Below, piece by piece: positions 11,147-32,345 of a DNA stretch of 64,000 nucleotides; position 1 is the first letter of the stretch; each line of letters opens with the position of its first letter. The notes below the pieces were generated by a model. It was not told the origin of the DNA, made no database searches, and saw only the letters and a program-made list of their open reading frames with translations. The position numbers and the translations under genes are program-made. Location of the stretch: the NCBI GenBank assembly GCA_038728085.1, contig JAVYUU010000004.1:20674-84673 (forward strand), written 5' to 3'. This stretch comes from Candidatus Bathyarchaeia archaeon (GTDB taxonomy: Archaea; Thermoproteota; Bathyarchaeia; Bathyarchaeales; Bathycorpusculaceae).

Positions 11147-11758
11147 TTAGATTATTCCAAGCCAGCTTCCCAAGGCTTCGCCGAAAAATGCTAAAAGCAT
11201 AAAAACCACAAGCCTAGGTGTAAAACTTAAAATCAGAAAGGTTCGGATCCGCGTCTTCAAAAGCCCGCATATTAGGGCGAGAAACTCCACGGGCAGCACT
11301 GGGATGAGTCCAAACAAGACGTAAATCGCCCAGCCCCATCTATTCCAGATAGCCGTTGCCGCTTCAAGCTCCTCAGCCCCCATTTTCTTCTCTAGGTAGG
11401 GTCTTCCAAGGCGGCAAGCCAAAAAATAGTTTACAGTCATGCCTATTGTAAATCCTATGGTGGCAATTAATGCAAGCAACGCGGGATTAAGTCCAAAAGA
11501 GGCGGCTGCTACCACGAGGGCTGGGCTTCCAAGGGGCACAACGGTTCCAGCCAAAATTGTTGCAAGGAAAACTCCGGCGAAGCCATACTCCCTAACAAGG
11601 TTTTTCGCATTCAAAAACAGCTGGGTCTCTCCAAGATTGAAAACCTTGAAAACGAGGATTAAGACTATGCCAATTATGAGGAAGGCTAGCCCCAACTTTA
11701 AGGAGGATTTAACCCAAGGTATTTCCAGAATGCTTTGCTTTTGGCTGTTGCCGCTCAA
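11147..11758 (-). CDS. DedA/YqaA-family (VTT domain) membrane protein
   Basis: This is a multi-TM ORF with YGFAGVFLATILAGTVVPLGSPALVVAAAS...NYFLACRLGRPYL. It overlaps the cobO stop by 4 nt. Confidence 0.65.
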   Translation of the reverse strand: MSGNSQKQSILEIPWVKSSLKLGLAFLIIGIVLILVFKVFNLGETQLFLNAKNLVREYGFAGVFLATILAGTVVPLGSPALVVAAASFGLNPALLALIATIGFTIGMTVNYFLACRLGRPYLEKKMGAEELEAATAIWNRWGWAIYVLFGLIPVLPVEFLALICGLLKTRIRTFLILSFTPRLVVFMLLAFFGEALGSWLGII

Positions 11759-12285
11759 TAGTCTATTCCCATTCTGGCCGGGTATCCTTTTCTATATGGG
11801 TGTTTAATCTCCCTCATTTCTGTGACGAGGTCAGCTGCCTCTATTATCTCGCTGGGTGCATAGCGTCCAGTCAAGACAAGTTCCACGTGCTCCGGCTTAT
11901 TCTTGATGAGTTCCAAAACTTTCTCTAGGCTTATTAGTTTGAGGCTTAGAGCCACGTTAATCTCGTCCAATATAACCATGTCATATTCACCGCTCTCCAC
12001 AACCTTCTTGGCCAGATTGAAAGCTTCCTCGGCTAGGGCTACATCCACTTCGTCCGGCGGCTTATGGGTCACGAATTGGCCCCTTCCAAAGGCCTTTAAA
12101 GTGAGGTTTGGAAGCTTATCCACAATGTAGAGTTCGCCGTAGTCGAAGCCTCCCTTGATAAACTGAACTATGTAGACCTTTAGGCCCCTCCCTATGGCTC
12201 TTAGGGCAAGCCCGAAGGCGGCTGAAGTTTTTCCCTTCCCGTTTCCGGTGTAAACCTGCACGAGTCCCTTTTCAAGCTTAGGCAT
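11755..12285 (-). CDS. cobO: cob(I)yrinic acid a,c-diamide / cob(I)alamin adenosyltransferase (CobA/CobO/BtuR type)
   Basis: GLVQVYTGNGKGKTSAAFGLALRAIGRGLKVYIVQFIKG...LDEINVAL...LTGRYAP..ADLVTEMREIKHP matches the CobA/BtuR family. Confidence 0.85.
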   Translation of the reverse strand: MPKLEKGLVQVYTGNGKGKTSAAFGLALRAIGRGLKVYIVQFIKGGFDYGELYIVDKLPNLTLKAFGRGQFVTHKPPDEVDVALAEEAFNLAKKVVESGEYDMVILDEINVALSLKLISLEKVLELIKNKPEHVELVLTGRYAPSEIIEAADLVTEMREIKHPYRKGYPARMGIDY

Positions 12286-12291
12286 AGGCAG

Positions 12292-13239
12292 CTACTCCAA
12301 TTCTTCTTGGTTTAGAAGCTTTTCCGCTGCGGTGGCAGGGTCTAATTCTCTGTCAACGATTTTTTGGAGGATTATTTCGAATCGTTTTTCCCTTTTCAAC
12401 TTTTCAATTATTGAGCTTGTCACCTTGTCCCTTATTGCCTCTATCAGTTCGATTTGGGCTTTCTCCCGGCTTTTCTTCCGCCATAACTCTTTCTGGAGAA
12501 ACTGCTTGTGCTCCTCTATTTTGTCTAGGAGTTGGGGGACACCCTCACCTGTAATGGCAACGGTCTTCACTATAGGCGGGTTCCATGCTTTTTCCCGGTC
12601 GTCCAGCTGGAGCACCGCTTGGAGGTCCATGACCGTTTTGTTGGCGTTTTCTCTGTCCGCCTTGTTCACGACGAATATGTCGGCTATCTCCATTAACCCG
12701 GCTTTAATGGCTTGTATTTCATCGCCGAGGCCCGGTGCGTGCACCACAACCACTGTTTGGGCGACTTTAACGATGTCCACTTCGGATTGTCCCGCCCCAA
12801 CGGTCTCCACTATTATGATGTCTTTTCCAGCTGCATCCAAAATTTTCACGGCGTCCTTTGTGGCTTTAGCTATGCCTCCCGGATTATTGCGGGTTGCCAT
12901 GCTCCGTATAAAAACGCCTTCGTCCGTGCTTAGTTCTTGCATGCGGATCCTGTCGCCAAGAAACGCTCCGCCAGTGAAGGGGCTTGTGGGATCTACGGCT
13001 ATAACCCCTACAGTTTTGCCTCTCCGCCTATACTCGCGAACCATCTTCTCTATTAGAGTGCTTTTCCCGGCACCACCTGGCCCCGTCAAACCTATTACAT
13101 GGGCTTTTCCGGTGTGGGGATATATGGTGGCGATGAGCCTTTGCGCCTCTTGCGGGCTGTTCTCCACCATGGATATGGCTTTAGCTATGCTTCTCTTGTC
13201 TCCGGCAAGCACGCCTTTCGCTATTTCGTCAACCTGCAA
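12292..13239 (-). CDS. meaB: methylmalonyl-CoA mutase-associated G-protein chaperone MeaB/ArgK
   Basis: GLTGPGGAGKSTLIEK (P-loop), VIAVDPTSPFTGGAFLGDRIRM, ETVGAGQSE and VVNKADR are MeaB hallmarks. Confidence 0.9.
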   Translation of the reverse strand: MQVDEIAKGVLAGDKRSIAKAISMVENSPQEAQRLIATIYPHTGKAHVIGLTGPGGAGKSTLIEKMVREYRRRGKTVGVIAVDPTSPFTGGAFLGDRIRMQELSTDEGVFIRSMATRNNPGGIAKATKDAVKILDAAGKDIIIVETVGAGQSEVDIVKVAQTVVVVHAPGLGDEIQAIKAGLMEIADIFVVNKADRENANKTVMDLQAVLQLDDREKAWNPPIVKTVAITGEGVPQLLDKIEEHKQFLQKELWRKKSREKAQIELIEAIRDKVTSSIIEKLKREKRFEIILQKIVDRELDPATAAEKLLNQEELE

Positions 13240-13255
13240 GGCTTATACGCTTCTC

Positions 13256-13693
13256 TTAGCGTCTTTTAGGAGCGTTTTCCAACACGTACTTCACAATCCT
13301 GTCCGTGGGAGTTCCCGGCCCGAAAACCTCTTTTATCCCAATCTTTTTCAGTTCTGGAATGTCCTCCTCTGGAATTATGCCGCCCGCAAACACAAGCACA
13401 TCTGTTAAACCTTTCTCCTTGAGGAGCTCCATGATTCTTGGGAAAAGCGCCATGTGGGCGCCTGAAAGGATGCTTAAGCCTATGACGTCCACATCCTCCT
13501 GCAAGGCTGTTTCAACTATTTGTTCGGGAGTCTGCCTAAGCCCCGTGTAGATTACCTCCATTCCAGCGTCGCGAAGAGCCCTCGCCACTATTTTGGCTCC
13601 CCTATCATGGCTGTCCAGCCCCGGCTTGGCTATCAAAACCCTGATTTTTCTTTGGCTTGTGCCTTCGCTTTGCATGCCTTTCCGCCTCACCAA
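13256..13693 (-). CDS. methylmalonyl-CoA mutase, B12-binding small subunit
   Basis: It carries the DxHxxG cobalamin-binding motif ([13 protein letters not shown]) plus SILSGAH...GGIIP. Confidence 0.9.
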
Positions 13694-13703
13694 CTTTTAG
13701 ATT

Positions 13704-15386
13704 CTAGATTATTATTAGCTCTTTGTATTCTCCGTAAACTTTTCGCAGCACATCCATTATTTCGCCAAGGGTGGCGTAAGCCTTAACCGCCTCGATGATT
13801 GTTGGCATGAGGTTTTCATCCTTAGCTGCTGCATAATGCAGCTTTTCAAGAACTTCCCTAACTTTTCTATTGTCTCTCTCCCTTCGGAGCTTCTGCAGTC
13901 GCTCAATCTGCTTTTTCTCAACGCTTGGGTCAACCCTCAAAAGCTTCACTGGACACTTCTCGCCTTCAACGGTATACTCGTTTACGCCGACCACTATGCG
14001 TTTTTTCTCTTCTATCTCCCTCTGATATCGATAGGCGGCTTCGGCTATTTCCCTCTGGAAGAAACCCTTTTCTATGGCGGCTATGGCTCCGCCCATGTCA
14101 TCCACTTTTTCAATGTATTCCATGACTTTTTCCTCCATCTCGTTTGTCAAAGCCTCCACGTAGTAGGAGCCCGCCAAAGGATCAACGGTATTTGCCACGC
14201 CGCTTTCATAGGCGATTATCTGCTGGGTTCTAAGCGCCACACGCACAGATTCCTCTGTCGGCAAGCATAAAGCCTCATCGAAAGAGTTCGTGTGCAGGGA
14301 TTGAGTTCCACCTAGCACAGCGGCTAAAGCCTGAATGGTTGTGCGGACAATGTTGTTTAGGGGTTGCTGCGCCGTCAAGGTGCAGCCTGAAGTCTGCACG
14401 TGCATACGCATCCACATGGAGCGCGGGTTCTTGGCGTGGAACCGCTCCTTCATTATCCTAGCCCATAAGCGTCTAGCCGCTCTAAATTTGGCTATTTCCT
14501 CGAAGAAGTCGTTGTGGGAGGCGAAAAAGAATGACAGGCGTGGTGCAAAATCGTCCACCTTTAAACCCCGTTTAAGAGTCTCCTCCACATAGGCTATGGC
14601 GTCGCAGAGGGTGAACGCCAACTCTTGGACGGCGGTGGCGCCTGCCTCGCGGATGTGATAGCCGCTTATGCTGATGGGATTCCATTTGGGCAAGTGTCTA
14701 GCACAAAACTCAATTATGTCCACCGAAAGCTTCAGGGATGGCTTAGGCGGGAAGATGCAGAGCTTTTGAGCGAAAAACTCCTTCAAATTGTCATTCTGGG
14801 TTGTGCCGCCAAGCTTTTCCCTAGGGACGCCTTGCTTGTCGCCCACGGCAATATACATGGCTAGCAAAACAATTGCCGGACCATTAATCGTCATGGAAGT
14901 CGTAACCTTATCCAAGGGTATGCCGTCAAAGAGGATTTCCATGTCCTGCAGCGAGGACACGGCTACACCGCAGACACCGACTTCGCCCCGAGCCATGGGA
15001 TGGTCAGAATCATAGCCCATGATTGTTGGGTAGTCGAAAGCCGTACTTAATCCGGTTTCACCCTCACTCAACAAATATTTGAACCGTCTATTGGTATCTT
15101 CAGCGGTGCCGTACCCCGCGAACATGCGCATCGTCCACAGTCTCCCGCGGTACATGGTGGCGTGTAAACCCCGTGTGAACGGGTATTCGCCTGGAAATCC
15201 AAGATCCCGCATGTAGTCCAAGTCCTTAATGTCTTCGGGCGTGTACAATCCCTTAATCGTCATGCCTGAATGATTCTTGAACTCTTTCTGGCGTTCGGGG
15301 CACTGCATGATCCAGTTTGGCAGCGTGGATTTTTCCCAGCGTTCCCTTTCCCTCGCTATTTCCTCAATTTTCTGTTTGTCAAACAT
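13704..15386 (-). CDS. methylmalonyl-CoA mutase, catalytic large subunit
   Basis: The 560-aa ORF contains [36 protein letters not shown] and [36 protein letters not shown]. Confidence 0.9.
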
Positions 15387-15490: not shown

Positions 15491-16669
15491 GTGGATACGG
15501 AAAACTTAGGCTTCTCAACAAAAGCGGTGCGCGGCGGGGAAAAACCAGACGCGCTGGGAGCCGTCTCCGCACCCATCTATGAAACCTCGGTTTTCGCCTT
15601 CATGAGCACTAAGAGGCTTATTGACGTTATAAGTGAAAGGGCAGAGGGCTACATATACACAAGGTTTGACAATCCCACCGTCAGAGCCGTTGAAGAGAAG
15701 ATGGCGGTTCTGGAAGACGCCGAAGACGCGGCAGCCTTCTCCTCGGGCATGGCGGCCATAACAACCACGATTCTGACATTAACTTCAAAAGGCGACCATA
15801 TAATAGCCTCCATGGACCTTTACGGTGGAACCCTAACCTTCTTCCAAGAGGTACTCCCAAGATTCGGTGTTGAAGTAAGCCTTGTGGACGCATCAAACCT
15901 AGGCGAAGTGGAGAAAGCCCTACAGAGCAACACAAGGGTCATTTACGTTGAAACTCCCACAAATCCAACGTTAAAGATAGTTGATTTGCGCGGGCTAGCT
16001 GCCATAGCCAGAAAAAGGAGAATCACCACCGTGGTTGATAGCACTCTTGCCTCGCCCTACAACTTACAACCGCTAAATTTTGGCACAGACATCGTTGTCC
16101 ACAGCGCCACCAAATACCTAGGCGGACACAACGATTTAACCGCCGGAATAGTCTGCGGCTCAAAAGAGTTCATTCAAAAACTGAAGAGAACTAGAAAAAT
16201 ATTGGGCGGAACCCTTGACCCAATCGCTGCATGGCTATTGCTACGCGGCCTAAAAACCCTAGCCGTTAGAATGGAAAAGCACAACCAAAACGGCATGCAA
16301 GTAGCCCAATTCCTAGCGGAGCATCCAAAAATCGCCAAAGTCTATTATCCCGGCTTACCAAGCCACCCCCAACATGAACTCGCCAGAAAGCAAATGCGCG
16401 GCTACGGCGGAGTGGTGAGCTTCGAAATAAAAGGCGACTTTGAAAAAACCATGCGGTTTATTGAAAACCTTAAACTTTGCCTTTTAGCCGCCAGCCTCGG
16501 CGGGACGGAAACCTTGGCTACACAACCAGCCACATCATCCCACTACTTCATAACGCCGGAGCAGCGCCAAAAACTAGGCATAACCGACCAGCTTGTACGC
16601 TTGGCTCTCGGCATAGAAGACGCGGAAGACATAATCGCCGACCTAAAACAAGCCCTCGAAAAAATCTAG
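15491..16669 (+). CDS. Cys/Met-metabolism PLP-dependent enzyme (cystathionine gamma-synthase / methionine gamma-lyase family)
   Basis: YTRFDNPTV and HSATKYLGGHNDL (PLP lysine) fit a 392-aa trans-sulfuration family enzyme. The exact specificity cannot be called. Confidence 0.8.
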   Translation: MDTENLGFSTKAVRGGEKPDALGAVSAPIYETSVFAFMSTKRLIDVISERAEGYIYTRFDNPTVRAVEEKMAVLEDAEDAAAFSSGMAAITTTILTLTSKGDHIIASMDLYGGTLTFFQEVLPRFGVEVSLVDASNLGEVEKALQSNTRVIYVETPTNPTLKIVDLRGLAAIARKRRITTVVDSTLASPYNLQPLNFGTDIVVHSATKYLGGHNDLTAGIVCGSKEFIQKLKRTRKILGGTLDPIAAWLLLRGLKTLAVRMEKHNQNGMQVAQFLAEHPKIAKVYYPGLPSHPQHELARKQMRGYGGVVSFEIKGDFEKTMRFIENLKLCLLAASLGGTETLATQPATSSHYFITPEQRQKLGITDQLVRLALGIEDAEDIIADLKQALEKI

Positions 16670-20297: not shown

Positions 20298-20711
20298 GTG
20301 AAGAAGTGCACCATCACGTTGGCTTTGTTTTCCTTGTGGGCGATAGTAATAGTACATGACGTAGATGCGGGAGTTAATGCTGTTATAATTCCGCCAATGG
20401 AGACATTTTCCCTTAACATAAATCTAAACAATTCAAGCAGTATACATGGAAGTTTCTATGCAGTGAACGGAATTATTAATTTCCTGTTTTCCGCTCCAGA
20501 CGGAAAAGTATTGTTTGAGGCAAACAACACATGTAACGGTACAATAAACTTTGAAGCATCTAAAACTGGAACATACGTTCTCCGTATATTAAATCCTAGT
20601 GAGGAGCATGCTGTAGAGGTTATTTATCCCGTCAAATTATGTAATAACATCACTGTATCCTTGACTTTAAAAATACAGCTAGTCCCACCGTTACCTCTAA
20701 TCCATCATTGA
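20298..20711 (+). CDS. hypothetical secreted protein
   Basis: The 137-aa ORF has an N-terminal signal-like hydrophobic segment (MKKCTITLALFSLWAIVIVHDVDA). It is AT-rich relative to its neighbours. Confidence 0.5.
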   Translation: MKKCTITLALFSLWAIVIVHDVDAGVNAVIIPPMETFSLNINLNNSSSIHGSFYAVNGIINFLFSAPDGKVLFEANNTCNGTINFEASKTGTYVLRILNPSEEHAVEVIYPVKLCNNITVSLTLKIQLVPPLPLIHH

Positions 20712-27265: not shown

Positions 27266-27667
27266 TTAGGTTGGCTTAAAATAGTATCTTGGCCATTGGG
27301 GCCATCCTTGGGTTTGCGGTGTTTCCTCAAATTCCACCTTTAAAGGCATTCCGATCCTTATTTTGTCAAGCGGCACTCCCTTTATGATCCCCGGGAGCTT
27401 AACACCATTTTCCAGTTGGATTATCCCAACCGCGTAGGGCGCCATGTTCTGGAATTGGGGTGGCGCCACATGGATCACTGTATAGGTTAGGAGCTCCCCC
27501 TTTTGAGGCATTTCAGCCCATTCGAATTCTGTCGACAGGCATTTGTCGCACAGGGGGCGTGGCGGCATATGGATTTTTCCGCATTTACGGCATTTTCCGC
27601 CCATCAGTTTTTTCTGGCCTATGTTTTTGTAGAACTGTTCAATTGTGAAGGCTGTTTGTCCGTTCAT
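27266..27667 (-). CDS. DUF35 (Zn-ribbon + OB-fold) thiolase-associated protein
   Basis: It has the zinc ribbon CRKCGKIHMPPRPLCDKC plus an OB-fold tail. The start is set at ATG 27667, with GGAGGGG 7 nt upstream and 4 nt after the thiolase stop. The listed 27721 start overlaps the thiolase gene. Confidence 0.8.
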   Translation of the reverse strand: MNGQTAFTIEQFYKNIGQKKLMGGKCRKCGKIHMPPRPLCDKCLSTEFEWAEMPQKGELLTYTVIHVAPPQFQNMAPYAVGIIQLENGVKLPGIIKGVPLDKIRIGMPLKVEFEETPQTQGWPQWPRYYFKPT

Positions 27668-27671
27668 GTTT

Positions 27672-28850
27672 TTATCCCCTCCTGTATATGTGGACTGTGG
27701 CTGTTGCACCTGAACCGCCAACGTTGTGGGTTAAGCCTACCTCAGCGTCGTCCACTTGTCGCTTGTCCGCCTGCCCGGTTAGTTGTAGGTATATCTCGTA
27801 GGCTTGGGCTGTTCCCGTGGCGCCTACTGGGTGGCCCTTTGCCTTTAGGCCTCCGCTCGTGTTTACGGGTATTCTTCCATTAAGGGTTGTTTCGCCGTTT
27901 TCCGCTAGGCGTCCGCCCTCGCCTGGTTTGCAGAAGCATAGATCCTCGTAGGCTATTATTTCGGCTATGGTGAAGCAGTCGTGCACTTCCGCCACGTCTA
28001 TGTCTTCTGGCTTCACTCCAGCCATTTCATAGGCCTCTTTTGCGGCGAGTTTGGCTGCTCTGAGCGATGTGAAGTCGTCCCTTTCATACAAGCCTATGGT
28101 GTCGCTTGCTTGGCCTGTGCCGATTATGTGGACTGGTGTGTCCGTGTACCTTTTCGCGATTTCAGGCTTTGTGAGTATGAGGCAGCTTGCTCCATCGCTT
28201 ATGGGCGAGCAATCGTAGAGTTTTAGGGGCCAAGCGATAACCCGTGACGTCAATACCTGTTCAATAGTTATTTCCTTTTGCATGTGGGCTTTCGGGTTTA
28301 GGCTTCCATTATAATGGTTTTTCACGGCCACGTGGGCTAGCTGCACCTCTGTGGTGCCATACTTGTGCATGTGAGCTGTGGCCATTAGGGCAAACAGCCC
28401 TGGAAAGGTTAATCCATGCCACTGTTCGAAGGGGAAGTCTGAAGCCATGGCTAAAAAATCCGTGACTTCGGGAGTACTTCGATGGGTCATTTTCTCAACA
28501 CCACCAACCATGACAACGTCGCACATGCCTGAAGCTATCGCATATATTGCGGTTCTAAGAGCTGCCCCTGAAGAACTGCAAGCCGCTTCCATCCTCACCG
28601 CTGGAATATGCAGTAGCCCAGCCCAGTCCGCTACTGCGGCGCCTGTGTGCCCTTGATGCTCATAGGATTCACCCATGTGTCCAATGAAAAGGGCTTTTAT
28701 GTCCTTTTTTGGGTCTAGGCGTGGGCAGCGCTCGTAGGCTTCCCTAGCGGCTTGGGCGAAGATTTCTCGGGCGTATAAACCTTCAAGTTTTCCGAATTTT
28801 GAGAGTCCTGCAGAAACTATTGAAGCGAGGGGTTTTCCCTTCAAATTCAA
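27672..28850 (-). CDS. SCP-x/archaeal-type thiolase (acetyl-CoA C-acyltransferase), catalytic residues present
   Basis: The nucleophile context is VRMEAACSSSGAAL. GHPVGATGTAQ and THNVGGSG are also present. Confidence 0.85.
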   Translation of the reverse strand: MNLKGKPLASIVSAGLSKFGKLEGLYAREIFAQAAREAYERCPRLDPKKDIKALFIGHMGESYEHQGHTGAAVADWAGLLHIPAVRMEAACSSSGAALRTAIYAIASGMCDVVMVGGVEKMTHRSTPEVTDFLAMASDFPFEQWHGLTFPGLFALMATAHMHKYGTTEVQLAHVAVKNHYNGSLNPKAHMQKEITIEQVLTSRVIAWPLKLYDCSPISDGASCLILTKPEIAKRYTDTPVHIIGTGQASDTIGLYERDDFTSLRAAKLAAKEAYEMAGVKPEDIDVAEVHDCFTIAEIIAYEDLCFCKPGEGGRLAENGETTLNGRIPVNTSGGLKAKGHPVGATGTAQAYEIYLQLTGQADKRQVDDAEVGLTHNVGGSGATATVHIYRRG

Positions 28851-28906
28851 CTTCTCCCAAGCTCATGGAGAAAAAACCATAGTTAAAAACAAGTATTTTT
28901 GAGTTT

Positions 28907-28966
28907 CCTATGGCTTAATTGTTTTCTCACGAAAGTTTTATGTGAACTTTAGCTTAAACCTATAGG
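28907..28966. promoter_or_regulatory. imperfect inverted repeat in divergent thiolase promoter region (CCTATGGCTTAA ... TTAAACCTATAGG)
   Basis: The two arms (28907-28918 and 28954-28966) match 11 of 13 positions as reverse complements. They lie between the divergent genes starting at 28850 (-) and 28998 (+). Confidence 0.25.
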
Positions 28967-28997
28967 CTCTAAAAACTGGAGAAGGAAGGGAAAGGTT

Positions 28998-30155
28998 ATG
29001 AGTAGGGTTGCCATTGTTGGTGTTGGATGTGTTGGCTTTAGACCAATGACGCTTGAGCTATCCTTTAAGGAGTTGATGTTTGAGGCGGCTGTTAAAGCCT
29101 ATGAGGATGCCGGCGGATTAAACCCGCGGAAGGACGTAGATGTTTTCGTGACGTGCGCCGAGGATTATTTGGAGGGCTTCAGCATATTTGACGAGTTTGT
29201 CCCAGACCAGCTTGGCGCAGCCATGCGCCCATTGTTCACGGTTTCAGGCGATGGAATGCTTGGACTGGCAACAGCCTACATGCTGATAAAGACTGGGCAA
29301 TTTGACACTGTTGTTGTAGAGGCACACAGCAAGGCCTCGGACATTTTAACATACATGGATATTGTGCAGTTTGGGTTAGACCCAATTTTCAATAGACCTT
29401 TGGGTGGTCATCCTTACTATGTTGCGGGTTTGGAGATGAACCGCTATCTACATGATACGGGCACAACGGAGGAGCAATGCGCGCAGGTTGTTGTCAAAAA
29501 TAGGAGGAACGCCATACTTAACCCTCATGCGGCTTATGGGGCGGAGGTATCAATTGACCAGGTTATGGGCTCTGAGAGGCTTTTCCATCCATTGAAAAGG
29601 TTGGAGATCAGCATTCCAGCTGACGGCTGCATAGTCATGGTTTTAGCCTCTGAAGGGGTTGCTGAAAAGCTTACGGACAAGCCCATCTGGGTTAGGGGCA
29701 TTGGCTGGTGCACGGAAACTCCAAGCCTTGAAACCCGCGACTGGACGAGAGCCGTTTACACGCGGCTAGCAGCCGAAATGGCCTACAAGGAGGCGAAGAT
29801 CACTAATCCATGGCGGGACATAGACTTCGCCGAAGTCCACGACTTGTTCGCCTACAAGGAGCTCCAGCACATGGAAGCCCTCAAACTATGCGACTATGGC
29901 GAGGCTGGAAAACTAACCGAGGAAGGCCTAACAGCCTTGAACGGAGAGCTTCCCATAAACCCGTCTGGCGGGCTTCTTGGAATGGGCTATGGGTTAGAGG
30001 CTTCTGGACTGCAAAAAGTTTTGGAAGTTGTTCTGCAATTGCGAGGCGAGGCTGGCGCAAGGCAAATTGACAACGTTGAGGTGGGCCTAGCCCATACATG
30101 GCGGGGGATTCCAACGGCAACAGGCGCCGTAGCCATATTAAGCAGTGTCAAATAG
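28998..30155 (+). CDS. thiolase-fold protein lacking the nucleophilic Cys (Cys->Ser by hand alignment)
   Basis: The overall SCP-x thiolase layout is present (MSRVAIVGVG..., VVEAHSKAS, FAEVHDLFAYKEL, NPSGGLLGMGYGLEASG). However, VSGDG replaces AACSS, and Tyr replaces the His of the GHP motif. Confidence 0.8.
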   Translation: MSRVAIVGVGCVGFRPMTLELSFKELMFEAAVKAYEDAGGLNPRKDVDVFVTCAEDYLEGFSIFDEFVPDQLGAAMRPLFTVSGDGMLGLATAYMLIKTGQFDTVVVEAHSKASDILTYMDIVQFGLDPIFNRPLGGHPYYVAGLEMNRYLHDTGTTEEQCAQVVVKNRRNAILNPHAAYGAEVSIDQVMGSERLFHPLKRLEISIPADGCIVMVLASEGVAEKLTDKPIWVRGIGWCTETPSLETRDWTRAVYTRLAAEMAYKEAKITNPWRDIDFAEVHDLFAYKELQHMEALKLCDYGEAGKLTEEGLTALNGELPINPSGGLLGMGYGLEASGLQKVLEVVLQLRGEAGARQIDNVEVGLAHTWRGIPTATGAVAILSSVK

Positions 30156-30162
30156 GAGGTGG

Positions 30163-31335
30163 ATGGACATGTTTGGGAAAAAGCGTGTAGCCATAGTTGG
30201 TGCCGGTGTAACTCTTTTCAGGCGGAATCTGAAGGAAACAGGGAAGGAATTGGCTTATCACGCGGCGAAGATGGCTCTTGAACAGGCTGGAATGGAGCTT
30301 CGCGACATCCAAAGCGTAGTGATGGGATCTGCGCCAGACGCTTTTGACGGAGTTCACATGAAGGGTGAGTATTTGGCTGACGGCGCCGGAGCATACCACA
30401 AGCCATACATGAGGGTTTTCGTGGGCGGCGGCACAGGCGTGTTTGCGCCCATAGCCGGCTGGTGGCATGTCGCCTCTGGACAATTTGACACTTGTCTGGT
30501 GGTGTGTGAAGAGAAAATGTCGTCTTGTTATCCGCACCCGCAATATGCTTTCACAACGATATTTGACCCCATTCTCGAGCGGCCCATCGGCATGAACCTC
30601 ATTTGGATTTTCGCCTTGGAAATGAACCGTTACATGCACAAGCACAACATTAAGAAGGAGGATATAGCCCTTGTCTCGGTTAAAAACAAGCGGAATGCCC
30701 TTGACAACCCCATTGCCCAGTTGGGCGCCAACATAACCGTGGAGGACGTTTTAAACTCGGAGATTATGGCTTGGCCTGTTCAACGCTTGGATGTAAGCCC
30801 CACAAGTGATGGGGCAGCCGCCGTTGTGCTTGTTTCCGAAGACGTTGCTAAAGAGGTCACGGACAACCCCATTTGGATTGACGGTGTAGGCTGGTGCATA
30901 GACTCCACCCACTGGACGAACCGAGACCTATACTATCCGGATTATGTGGAGTATGCAGCTCGCATGGCTTATAAAATGGCTGGAATCAAGAATCCGCCGA
31001 AGGAAATTGACGTGGCTGAACCCTATGACCCCTTCGACTATAAGGAGCTTCACCACATGGAAGGCTTGCTATTATGCAAGAAGGGCGAAGCGCCAAAGCT
31101 CACCAAGGAAGGAGTAACCCAAAGGGACGGCGACTTGCCTATTTGTCCATCCGGCGGGCTTTTGGGATGCGGAAACCCCATTGCAGCGGCTGGTTTAATG
31201 AAGGTTTGCGAGATCTTCTGGCAGCTACGGGGTGAAGCTGGCAAGCGACAGGTGCCCGGAGACCCACGCACTGGCTTGGCGCAGGCTTGGGGCGACCTCA
31301 TGCAGTATGGCTCGGTAATAGTGTTAAGGCGTTAA
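30163..31335 (+). CDS. thiolase-fold protein lacking the nucleophilic Cys (Cys->Gly by hand alignment)
   Basis: VGGGTG occupies the nucleophile position, and GCGNPIAAAG replaces GHPxGATG. GGAGG lies upstream. The start could be 30163 or 30169; the listed 30145 overlaps the previous gene. Confidence 0.8.
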   Translation: MDMFGKKRVAIVGAGVTLFRRNLKETGKELAYHAAKMALEQAGMELRDIQSVVMGSAPDAFDGVHMKGEYLADGAGAYHKPYMRVFVGGGTGVFAPIAGWWHVASGQFDTCLVVCEEKMSSCYPHPQYAFTTIFDPILERPIGMNLIWIFALEMNRYMHKHNIKKEDIALVSVKNKRNALDNPIAQLGANITVEDVLNSEIMAWPVQRLDVSPTSDGAAAVVLVSEDVAKEVTDNPIWIDGVGWCIDSTHWTNRDLYYPDYVEYAARMAYKMAGIKNPPKEIDVAEPYDPFDYKELHHMEGLLLCKKGEAPKLTKEGVTQRDGDLPICPSGGLLGCGNPIAAAGLMKVCEIFWQLRGEAGKRQVPGDPRTGLAQAWGDLMQYGSVIVLRR

Positions 31336-31352
31336 ATGGAGGTGATTAAGGA

Positions 31353-31868
31353 ATGAGCGTTAAAATTAAGCATTTTCCGGGAGAAGAGATTGAAACCAAA
31401 GACTTTCGTGAAGGCAAAGTTCTGTTTGAAAGTTTCCGTTCAAAGGCGAGGTATGCGTGGAGCGCTGGCATAGCCGTAAGCCGCTTCCTAGAAGAGCTGA
31501 AGAATGGGCGAATCCTCGCCTCCACATGCAGCAAGTGTGGGCGCATAATGGTTCCGCCGCGGATCTACTGCGAGAAATGCTTCAAGCCGACGGACGGCTG
31601 GACCTATGTGAAGGATACGGGCATCATCAACACATTCTCAGTTTCGTTTATAGCAGCCGATGCCTCTAGGCTGAAAGAGCCGGTAGTGGTGGCTGTCATA
31701 GAGTTGGACGACGCCTCACCGGGCATGGGTATAGTCCACTGGCTAGGCGAATATGGCGATTGGCGTGAAATCAAAATCGGCATGCGTGTCCAAGCTGTCT
31801 GGAAGCCTCCGGAAGAACGCACGGGCGCCATCACCGACATAAAGTACTTTAAGCCCTTGAAGGAGTGA
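31353..31868 (+). CDS. DUF35 (Zn-ribbon + OB-fold) protein
   Basis: It has the zinc ribbon CSKCGRIMVPPRIYCEKC plus an OB-fold C-terminus ending in DIKYFKP. Confidence 0.8.
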   Translation: MSVKIKHFPGEEIETKDFREGKVLFESFRSKARYAWSAGIAVSRFLEELKNGRILASTCSKCGRIMVPPRIYCEKCFKPTDGWTYVKDTGIINTFSVSFIAADASRLKEPVVVAVIELDDASPGMGIVHWLGEYGDWREIKIGMRVQAVWKPPEERTGAITDIKYFKPLKE

Positions 31869-31874
31869 AAAGCC

Positions 31875-32345
31875 ATGAGCCTTGAAAAGATAACCAATCC
31901 GTTAAACGCACGCCACTGGCTAGGCCACATGGAAACCGACTACCGTTACACGTTAGGCGTGGCTGGCGAACGCTTCTTGAAGGAAATTAAGGAGAACGCC
32001 CGCATAATGGGTGCTAAATGTCCCAAATGCGGCGTAGTCTTTGTCCCGCCAAGGCTTTACTGCGAAAAGTGTTTTGCCAAACTTGAAGAGTGGGTGGATG
32101 TCGGCACACGCGGCGAAGTCTACACGTACACGATTGCCACTATAGACGTGGATGGCAAAAAGCTGGAGAAACCGCAGATGTACGCGCTCATAAAGTTTGA
32201 GGGCGCCCACGGCGGATTAATCCACCGCCTAGGCGAAACAGACAAGGTCTACATCGGCATGAAGGTGGAAGCGGTCTTCAAACCGCCAGCCGAGCGGAAA
32301 GCCTCCATAAACGACATAGCCTACTTCAAACCAGTAGAACATTAA
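31875..32345 (+). CDS. DUF35 (Zn-ribbon + OB-fold) protein
   Basis: It has the zinc ribbon CPKCGVVFVPPRLYCEKC plus an OB-fold C-terminus ending in DIAYFKP. Confidence 0.8.
   Translation: MSLEKITNPLNARHWLGHMETDYRYTLGVAGERFLKEIKENARIMGAKCPKCGVVFVPPRLYCEKCFAKLEEWVDVGTRGEVYTYTIATIDVDGKKLEKPQMYALIKFEGAHGGLIHRLGETDKVYIGMKVEAVFKPPAERKASINDIAYFKPVEH

Follow-up and report, generated by a model that had tools for sequence, protein, structure and literature searches.

What can thiolase-fold proteins do once they have lost the residues of thiolase catalysis? The question is raised by a 64,000-nucleotide stretch of DNA of a Candidatus Bathyarchaeia archaeon (positions 20,674 to 84,673 of contig JAVYUU010000004.1, assembly GCA_038728085.1), referred to here as the window, which comes from a genome of 1.43 Mb that is 98% complete and that its closest homologues also place in Bathyarchaeia. 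The window encodes in tandem two such paralogs, T2 and T3, followed by two proteins of the DUF35 family, D2 and D3. We propose that the four products form a D2-T2-T3-D3 complex in which T3 performs a cysteine-independent, retro-aldol-type cleavage of carbon-carbon bonds in acyl-CoAs derived from amino acids, and we assign this reading a probability of roughly 45%. An uncharacterised enzyme making or breaking C-C bonds of CoA esters had been suggested by an earlier analysis of the letters alone (the sequence-only reading), and this is still the best reading of the locus.

The six open reading frames (ORFs) of the locus consist of a thiolase/DUF35 pair, T1 and D1, that diverges from T2-T3-D2-D3, with the coordinates that the sequence-only reading had given:

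27266-27667, minus strand: D1, DUF35 protein (zinc ribbon and OB fold), partner of T1; Pfam PF12172 and PF01796
27672-28850, minus strand: T1, canonical SCP2/archaeal-type thiolase of 392 aa; NCBIfam PRK06064, catalytic columns kept
28851-28997, no strand: divergent intergenic (promoter) region between T1 and T2, 147 bp; ORF map
28998-30155, plus strand: T2, degenerate thiolase-fold subunit of 385 aa; PRK06066 (NF004722) and Pfam
30169-31335, plus strand: T3, thiolase-fold subunit lacking the nucleophilic cysteine, presumed catalytic; PRK06065 (NF004721) and Pfam
31353-31868, plus strand: D2, first dedicated DUF35 subunit, with a Cys4 zinc ribbon; Pfam
31875-32345, plus strand: D3, second dedicated DUF35 subunit, ortholog of SSO2064 (PDB 3IRB); Pfam and match to 3irb

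The plus-strand genes T2, T3, D2 and D3 are separated by 6-17 nt, and the region between T1 and T2 contains only a weak 10-nt inverted repeat (28886-28895 / 28916-28925). The D1 ORF extends to a TTG at 27721 (27266-27721); the ATG at 27667 is its probable start, with which the 4-nt gap between T1 and D1 described before holds. The ORF of T3 spans 30145-31335 and encodes 396 aa. Since homologues of T3 are 388 aa long, translation probably starts at Met9, at 30169; the residue numbers used here refer to the 396-aa ORF from 30145. Pfam identifies T1, T2 and T3 as thiolase folds (Thiolase_C_1 PF22691, Thiolase_N PF00108) and D1, D2 and D3 as proteins composed of zf-ChsH2 and OB_ChsH2_C domains (DUF35; PF12172 and PF01796), the DUF35 hits being above the cut-offs. 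T1 scores 518 bits against PRK06064 (cut-off 420) and matches 7yvy at 2e-98. T2 and T3 exceed the equivalog cut-offs of NF004722 (PRK06066; 526.1 bits, cut-off 516) and NF004721 (PRK06065; 710.7 bits, cut-off 455), respectively. The three families carry the same NCBIfam name, "thiolase domain-containing protein".

The catalytic residues were read from alignments to the solved thiolases 7yvy, 6esq and 4yzo and from MAFFT alignments of 192 sequences, including 80 T3 and 76 T2 orthologs, and of eight sequences covering all paralogs. T1 contains the nucleophilic cysteine (EAACSSSG), the HDCF loop and the GHP motif, and was rightly called canonical. In T3, the nucleophilic cysteine is replaced by glycine, HDCF by YDPF, and GHP by GNP. 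In T2, the nucleophile is a serine next to a three-residue deletion, HDCF is HDLF, and GHP is GYG. The loss of the nucleophile from both paralogs and the replacement of the GHP histidine, which had been deduced by hand alignment, thus reappear in the alignments, and there is no cysteine at the nucleophile position of T2 or T3 of the window. The acid/base cysteine of the HDCF loop is also gone from both proteins, a loss beyond those in the earlier note. Because the nucleophile of T3 is glycine, no acyl-enzyme can be formed, and to judge from the aligned residues the products of T2 and T3 cannot perform thiolysis. Among the reference structures, 7yvy (P. furiosus thiolase PFC_04095) has HDAF in place of HDCF, yet keeps the nucleophilic cysteine and GHP; even a cysteine-bearing archaeal thiolase can thus lack the acid/base cysteine of the SCP2-type loop.

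The sequence-only reading treated the two paralogs as equivalent, which they are not: the site of T3 has been rebuilt and is strictly conserved, whereas T2 varies at every catalytic position. The glycine, the Y-D-P-F loop and the G-N-P motif of T3 are each invariant in 80/80 sequences. In contrast, the nucleophile position of the 76 T2 orthologs is occupied by S/T/P/C/A, and the remaining catalytic columns drift through D/H/N/C/S, L/T/M/R/K/S and Y/N/H/W. T3 has 120 invariant positions out of 396, compared with 16 in T2; they include G94-G95, E122, K182, Y294-D-P296-F, N344 and A381-W382/D384, and every former catalytic loop holds one. No cysteine is conserved in T3, where no cysteine column exceeds 84%, which rules out a relocated nucleophile. 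Decay of T2 and T3 into pseudogenes is ruled out by intact reading frames in about 96 loci and by the 120 invariant positions of T3. The recurrent gene order and the invariant substitutions of T3 form a pattern far beyond chance. Judged by its drifting catalytic columns, T2 is most likely non-catalytic.

T3 is also the subunit under the strongest constraint. The mean pairwise identity among the 69 loci that contain all four genes is 76% for T3, 57% for D2, 55% for T2 and 46% for D3, and T3 is the most conserved subunit in 2346/2346 genome pairs. Across all hosts, T3 sequences are 63-97% identical. In a maximum-likelihood tree, T2 and T3 are sister clades (support 100/99) with partly congruent internal topologies, and the terminal branches of T3 are about 3-6 times shorter than those of T2. 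The joint clade stands beside the archaeal thiolases in this tree, which was calculated without the sequences of Ltp2 and Sal, two bacterial aldolases of the thiolase fold. The simplest reading is a single ancient duplication followed by asymmetric divergence, in which T3 would have kept or gained a constrained site and T2 would have become its structural partner. A 679-residue protein (P0087) in which T2 without its last ~40 residues is joined to T3 without its first ~60 was considered as a Rosetta-stone fusion and rejected, since it is probably an artefact of deletion or assembly. The AlphaFold2 model of T3 (pLDDT 93.4, pTM 0.94) retrieves in Foldseek searches first the archaeal thiolases (7yvy, 6et9/6esq) and ST0096, which also lacks the cysteine, with TM-scores of 0.87-0.93 to 7yvy and 6et9. 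ST0096 (PDB 4YZO) is not a solved ortholog of T2: it is below the cut-offs of PRK06065/66.

The two DUF35 subunits are distinct from each other. The columns of their Cys4 zinc ribbon are 94-100% conserved. D3 of the window matches 3irb with 93 bits and D2 with 64 bits, and in the locus taken as that of Sulfolobus acidocaldarius (L082) D3 matches 3irb over its full length with E = 5.6e-66, compared with only 2.6e-16 for D2. On these matches, D3 is the ortholog of SSO2064, the protein of the founding DUF35 structure (3IRB).

The sequence-only reading had presented the four-gene set as that of an archaeon. The set is real, but its distribution is wide and reaches well beyond a single archaeon, and its two thiolase-fold families are catalogued as PRK06065/PRK06066. 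We assembled loci by keeping 80 from 593 confirmed relatives and adding 18 from complete genomes of Thermoprotei, and the order T2-T3-D2-D3 is kept in about 96 of them. The archaeal hosts belong to Bathyarchaeia, Nitrososphaerota, Thermoplasmata, Methanofastidiosia, Asgard archaea (Promethearchaeota, Hodarchaeota), Geoarchaeota and Sulfolobales. The bacterial hosts are three deltaproteobacterial or unclassified metagenome-assembled genomes (L056, L057, L070) and Symbiobacterium thermophilum (L062). Bacterial T3 is 72-76% identical to the archaeal protein and clusters with that of Methanofastidiosia and Methanobacteriota, which suggests that the intact operon was transferred between domains. 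The spread of the module is patchy: it is present in 14/41 close relatives, 5/9 genomes of the same genus, 84/401 genomes (21%) and 37/158 genera of the phylum. A T1/D1 pair divergent from the module is confined to about 35 loci of Bathyarchaeia, and is therefore not a core part of it.

Based on these observations, a mechanism can be proposed. By analogy with solved assemblies of thiolase-fold and DUF35 proteins, T2, T3, D2 and D3 probably form one hetero-oligomeric enzyme, which would be a pseudo-symmetric D2-T2-T3-D3 assembly like Ltp2-ChsH2 and Sal-Shy. T3 would be the catalytic subunit, in which the cysteine, histidine and cysteine of thiolases are swapped for an acid-base set of Tyr294, Asn344, Glu122, Lys182 and Asp384, with glycine at the nucleophile position. 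T2, a degenerate paralog, would be indispensable to T3 as its partner in the dimer, and two different DUF35 proteins would be needed because the T2-T3 core is asymmetric. T3 would most likely cleave or form a C-C bond on a β-hydroxyacyl-CoA (retro-aldol or aldol reaction), the cleavage yielding acetyl- or propionyl-CoA and an aldehyde or a ketone. The module would act downstream of acyl-CoA dehydrogenase (ACAD), where cells break down short or branched acyl-CoAs that originate from amino acids. The retro-aldol (or aldol) reaction is favoured because T3 combines an invariant polar site that includes the base tyrosine of Ltp2 and Sal with a preceding ACAD and following enzymes of aldehydes, keto acids and short acids. 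We speculate that a retro-aldolase would be especially useful for β-branched substrates with a tertiary alcohol that cannot be oxidised, such as 3-hydroxyisovaleryl-CoA or 3-hydroxy-3-methylglutaryl-CoA (HMG-CoA), although the substrate is a guess. The same logic of non-oxidisable tertiary alcohols explains Ltp2. What the data show is the order of the genes, the conserved residues, the fold, the neighbourhoods and the expression of the operon in a cultivated relative; the stoichiometry of the complex, the part of T3 in catalysis, the type of reaction and the class of substrate are inferred.

The neighbourhood of the module, an informative context that the sequence-only reading had overlooked, was counted in the 96 loci that contain T3. 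ACAD is encoded in the flanks of 25/96, in 22 of them at most 4 kb from T3, and a short-chain CoA ligase of the AMP-forming ACS family in 17/96. The large subunit of a coenzyme B12-dependent mutase occurs together with the B12-binding subunit in 23/96 loci, in three arrangements, accompanied by the GTPase MeaB in 20 and by adenosyltransferase (ATR) in 15. The deltaproteobacterial arrangement is a tight operon with the order Hbd-TetR-ACAD-ATR-mutase-B12-T2-T3-D2-D3-MeaB. The window contains the corresponding genes at a distance:

11755-15386, minus strand: B12 operon, 12 kb upstream of the module; tblastn, and Pfam on orthologs
13704-15386, minus strand: large subunit of isobutyryl-CoA-mutase type (putative); tblastn and F/A/Q signature
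13256-13693, minus strand: B12-binding small subunit; tblastn, and Pfam on orthologs
12292-13239, minus strand: MeaB GTPase; tblastn, and Pfam on orthologs
11755-12285, minus strand: ATP:corrinoid adenosyltransferase; tblastn, and Pfam on orthologs

In close relatives, the B12 operon lies directly downstream of D3. Among 41 relatives, the mutase is present in 13/14 genomes with the module and in 7/27 without it (Fisher p = 5e-5). The best PDB match of the mutase of the window is 2-hydroxyisobutyryl-CoA mutase (HcmA). The positions of Tyr89 of methylmalonyl-CoA mutase (MCM), Asp117 of HcmA and Arg207 of MCM hold Phe/Ala/Gln in 23/23 module-adjacent mutases. The second mutase paralog of the genome (C5:19192-20856), the large subunit of which is 68% identical to that of the window (13704-15386), has Tyr/Ala/Arg at these positions, as does the second copy in locus L043. 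The subunits of the linked mutase are split into proteins of 560 aa and ~133 aa. We take phenylalanine and glutamine, together with split subunits of 560 and 133 aa, to be the signature of isobutyryl-CoA mutase (ICM), and tyrosine and arginine to be that of MCM. By this signature, the module-linked mutase appears to be of the isobutyryl-CoA mutase type (IcmA/IcmB), which is, to our knowledge, little documented in archaea. Its identity as 2-hydroxyisobutyryl-CoA mutase was rejected, as the positions of Ile90 and Asp117 of HcmA are occupied by Phe and Ala. Divergent from the mutase operon, the window encodes a pyridoxal-phosphate-dependent enzyme of Cys/Met metabolism (15491-16669, plus strand; PF01053, 500 bits), the link of which to the module is not established.

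Other lineages surround the module with other enzymes. In Nitrososphaerales, an acetoacetate-CoA ligase (947 bits) sits between T3 and D2, and the cluster also encodes EtfAB, an Fe-S oxidoreductase, a class IV aminotransferase and a classical thiolase. Two Asgard loci carry aldehyde:ferredoxin oxidoreductase (AOR) after D3, one of them with an Fe-alcohol dehydrogenase (Fe-ADH) and SCP2, the other with a CoA ligase. The operon of Sulfolobales runs on into IorA (TIGR03336, 651.0 bits against a threshold of 650.9) and IorB, the subunits of indolepyruvate oxidoreductase. In one Bathyarchaeota chromosome, a fusion of formaldehyde-activating enzyme and hexulose-phosphate synthase (Fae-Hps; L028:9382-10827) follows directly after D3; the arrangement may be accidental, or it may indicate that formaldehyde can be the carbonyl product. 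Elsewhere in the genome of the window, a complete classical β-oxidation cluster includes a canonical thiolase/DUF35 pair of its own (C1:512-522 kb), so that ordinary thiolysis can proceed without the module.

Expression of the operon has been recorded in a cultivated relative. Saci_2230-2233 are a reported operon of S. acidocaldarius. According to a preprint that cites Wagner et al. 2018 (bioRxiv 10.1101/2021.07.28.454237), Saci_2230 to Saci_2235 are down-regulated on xylose. Another article gives the same comparison as xylose versus xylose with NZ-amine, with Saci_2230-2235 higher on the amino-acid-rich NZ-amine medium, reports that saci_2232-2235 are up-regulated under glucose/glutamate excess (log2 fold change 2.8-4.4), and annotates the latter four as two acetyl-CoA acetyltransferases, ACAD and acyl-CoA synthetase (PMC11486757). 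In L082, D3/D2 are located immediately before T3, followed by T2, ACAD and a divergent ligase gene, and Saci_2230-2235 would accordingly be D3, D2, T3, T2, ACAD and ligase. S. acidocaldarius is genetically tractable, so that the presumed orthologs Saci_2230-2233 make the hypothesis directly testable.

A comparison of active-site loops links T3 to the known aldolases in part. The loop that corresponds to HDCF is YDHF in TcLtp2, with the base Tyr294; YDCY in CtSal, with the base Tyr302, the acid Cys304 and glycine in place of the nucleophile; and YDCF in TbSLP, a protein of Trypanosoma brucei with weak malonyl-CoA decarboxylase activity (PMC12329534). The first feature of these aldolases, a base tyrosine in the former HDCF loop combined with the absence of the nucleophilic cysteine, is present in T3 and absent from T2. 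The position of the GHP histidine is at +50 from the first residue of the HDCF loop in T1, T2 and T3. Because Tyr344 of Ltp2 is also at +50 from Tyr294, it occupies the position of the GHP histidine. A tyrosine at +50 is found in T2 of the window, but in only 34/76 T2 sequences.

Several observations weigh against the proposed retro-aldol function. The second catalytic residue of the aldolases is missing from T3, in which Tyr344 of Ltp2 corresponds to Asn344 and Cys304 of Sal to Pro296. Sal and Ltp2 (9myr, 6ok1) rank only 37-40 among the Foldseek matches of T3, with ~25% identity. By sequence, tree and Foldseek ranking, T3 is outside the Ltp2/Sal clade and nearer to archaeal thiolases, so any aldolase chemistry would be convergent. 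No dedicated hydratase gene was found in the operon, and no MaoC gene near the module; MaoC hydratase is absent from 10/17 module-bearing genomes, and crotonases, present in 17/17, are rarely encoded nearby. What surrounds the module differs from locus to locus and points to no single substrate. The Saci locus tags were mapped to L082 by gene order and annotation. A more specific version of the proposal, which we consider doubtful, is that T3 is a convergent cysteine-free C-C lyase of the thiolase fold, by which archaea and some anaerobic bacteria could leave the β-oxidation of branched or non-oxidisable acyl-CoAs derived from amino acids through an aldolase-type step, without a thiolase, and that it works in an obligate heterotetramer with a pseudo-enzyme and two specialised DUF35 clamps. 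Such a lyase might, for example, convert 3-hydroxyisovaleryl-CoA or HMG-CoA to a ketone and acetyl-CoA, with hydration and cleavage perhaps taking place in one site.

The alternative that survives best is that T3 is catalytic in another cysteine-independent reaction of acyl-CoAs, such as decarboxylation, hydration or dehydration of the ACAD product, a hydratase-lyase reaction or isomerisation. The invariant Glu122, Lys182, Tyr294, Asn344 and Asp384 are unlike the full catalytic set of Ltp2 or Sal, the module directly follows ACAD in an operon without a hydratase gene, and the YDCF loop of TbSLP goes with decarboxylase activity, all of which would agree with such a reaction. However, the linked mutase has the Phe/Ala/Gln residues of the non-carboxylate ICM type, which removes the obvious substrate of a decarboxylase. 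A methylmalonyl-CoA decarboxylase coupled to MCM, similar to sbm-ygfG of E. coli, is disfavoured for this reason and because the MCM-type paralog is unlinked to the module. The downstream AOR, Fe-ADH and acetoacetate-CoA ligase are a better fit to a lyase that releases a carbonyl compound, and we know of no thiolase-fold hydratase. We regard a reaction of this kind as unlikely.

It is also conceivable that T2, T3, D2 and D3 are a non-catalytic scaffold or acyl-CoA-binding chaperone for ACAD, the ligase and the mutase, in analogy to the DUF35-mediated assembly of archaeal fatty-acid synthase. DUF35 proteins do mediate multi-enzyme assemblies (bioRxiv 10.1101/2024.07.05.601840), neither paralog contains any canonical catalytic residue, and the very high conservation of T3 could be explained by many protein interfaces. 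Nevertheless, the fixed residues of T3 are located precisely on the former catalytic loops and include the tyrosine that related aldolases use for catalysis. In a scaffold there would be no reason to keep the glycine, Y-D-P-F and G-N-P invariant, at positions where T2 drifts freely, and the partners vary by lineage while T3 remains 63-97% identical. These features make a pure scaffold quite improbable.

That T2 and T3 are accessory or regulatory subunits of the true thiolase T1/D1, which would carry out the thiolytic or acyl-transfer chemistry as PhlC does with PhlA, agrees with the divergent position of T1/D1 here and in ~35 Bathyarchaeia loci and with the mixture of active and inactive thiolase-superfamily subunits and a DUF35 protein in PhlABC and MucABC, but is very improbable, as most lineages (Sulfolobales, Nitrososphaerota, Asgard archaea, Thermoplasmata, bacteria) have no T1-type gene nearby, and T2 and T3 are mutual closest relatives co-inherited with two DUF35 proteins of their own.

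The module is not the archaeal mevalonate complex of thiolase, HMG-CoA synthase (HMGCS) and DUF35 protein, a conclusion that the sequence-only reading had drawn from the absence of HMGCS and that holds: no HMGCS is encoded in the cluster, and T2 and T3 lack the cysteine. The HMGCS of the genome is located on another contig (C5:54123-55631; NF003274, 377 bits, cut-off 244), as a 502-aa fusion with an N-terminal DUF35 domain. T2 and T3 are SCP2-type thiolase folds and were rejected as candidates for a divergent HMGCS. Directly upstream of HMGCS, within C5:54123-56846, is a gene for another thiolase-like protein, C5t (404 aa), with alanine at the nucleophile position, YDQS in place of HDCF and GNP in place of GHP; C5t groups in the tree with ST0096 (PDB 4YZO), which lacks the cysteine. 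A further contig (C2:14886-20674) encodes a canonical thiolase followed by a 468-aa fusion of an HMGCS-like domain with DUF35 (212 bits against the HMGCS cut-off of 244). By eye, this fusion has no cysteine at the usual nucleophile motif, and it is flanked by an Hbd/crotonase fusion and an MDR-type reductase. In its make-up, the C2 locus resembles the clusters of PhlABC or of archaeal fatty-acid synthase.

The two families are catalogued without a specific name, and no published function of the T2/T3 module was found in the searchable literature. Three points appear to be new: the division into a rebuilt, putatively catalytic paralog and a pseudo-enzyme paralog, the assignment of SSO2064 to subunit D3, and the association with an ICM-type mutase. 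Hundreds of archaeal genomes carry T2 and T3 under the wrong label of acetyl-CoA acetyltransferase, and metabolic reconstructions of Bathyarchaeia, Asgard archaea, Nitrososphaerota and Sulfolobales tally them as thiolases. If the proposed function is correct, it would add a new enzyme to archaeal acyl-CoA and amino-acid catabolism and provide a function for SSO2064.

Among the known systems, PhlABC/MucABC (PDB 5M3K, 9VBO) resemble the module in combining two different thiolase-superfamily subunits, one of them inactive, with a DUF35 protein. However, PhlC keeps Cys88 and the histidine, PhlA has a KAS III/HMGCS-like fold, and only one type of DUF35 protein is present. BbsAB and PhlC, which the sequence-only reading had named as analogies, are poor ones, as both keep the catalytic cysteine. 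TbSLP (PDB 5AB4-7) shares with T3 the SCP2-thiolase fold without the nucleophilic cysteine, the Y-D-x-F loop and the lack of an agreed function, and has been proposed to be an aldolase (PMC12329534). It differs in being eukaryotic and homodimeric, in having no DUF35 partner and in keeping the cysteine of YDCF.

The closest fold relatives (TM about 0.93) are those of the acetoacetyl-CoA thiolase/HMGCS/DUF35 complex (6ESQ/6ET9), in which a thiolase fold is bound by DUF35; T2 and T3 descend from this archaeal thiolase lineage. The thiolase of that complex keeps the nucleophilic cysteine and the GHP histidine and is paired with HMGCS, whereas T2 and T3 have lost the cysteine and have no adjacent HMGCS. 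The structure of SSO2064, the ortholog of subunit D3, was determined in isolation and deposited as that of an uncharacterised protein; the structure paper, which discussed PhlABC as an analogy, did not recognise that SSO2064 belongs to a T2-T3-D2-D3 set.

The closest functional analogues remain the thiolase-fold/DUF35 systems without the cysteine, as the sequence-only reading had proposed. Ltp2-ChsH2 (6OK1) and Sal-Shy (9MYR) share with the module an SCP2-thiolase fold that lacks the nucleophilic cysteine (glycine in Sal and T3), a tyrosine as the first residue of the HDCF loop (YDHF and YDCY, YDPF in T3), an obligatory DUF35 partner and genes located beside ACAD, and the product would likewise be an acyl-CoA and a carbonyl compound. 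Their core is a homodimer, whereas that of the module would be a heterodimer of two paralogs, one of them degenerate. Their DUF35 domain is fused to a MaoC hydratase, whereas D2 and D3 are free-standing proteins composed of a zinc ribbon and an OB fold. Ltp2 and Sal are bacterial retro-aldolases of steroid side chains, whereas the hosts of the module are archaea without steroid metabolism, in which its genes occur in the context of short and branched acyl-CoAs. If T3 is indeed a retro-aldolase, the concept of a thiolase-fold aldolase, known only from bacterial steroid degradation, would extend to an archaeal system that arose convergently and has a far wider distribution.

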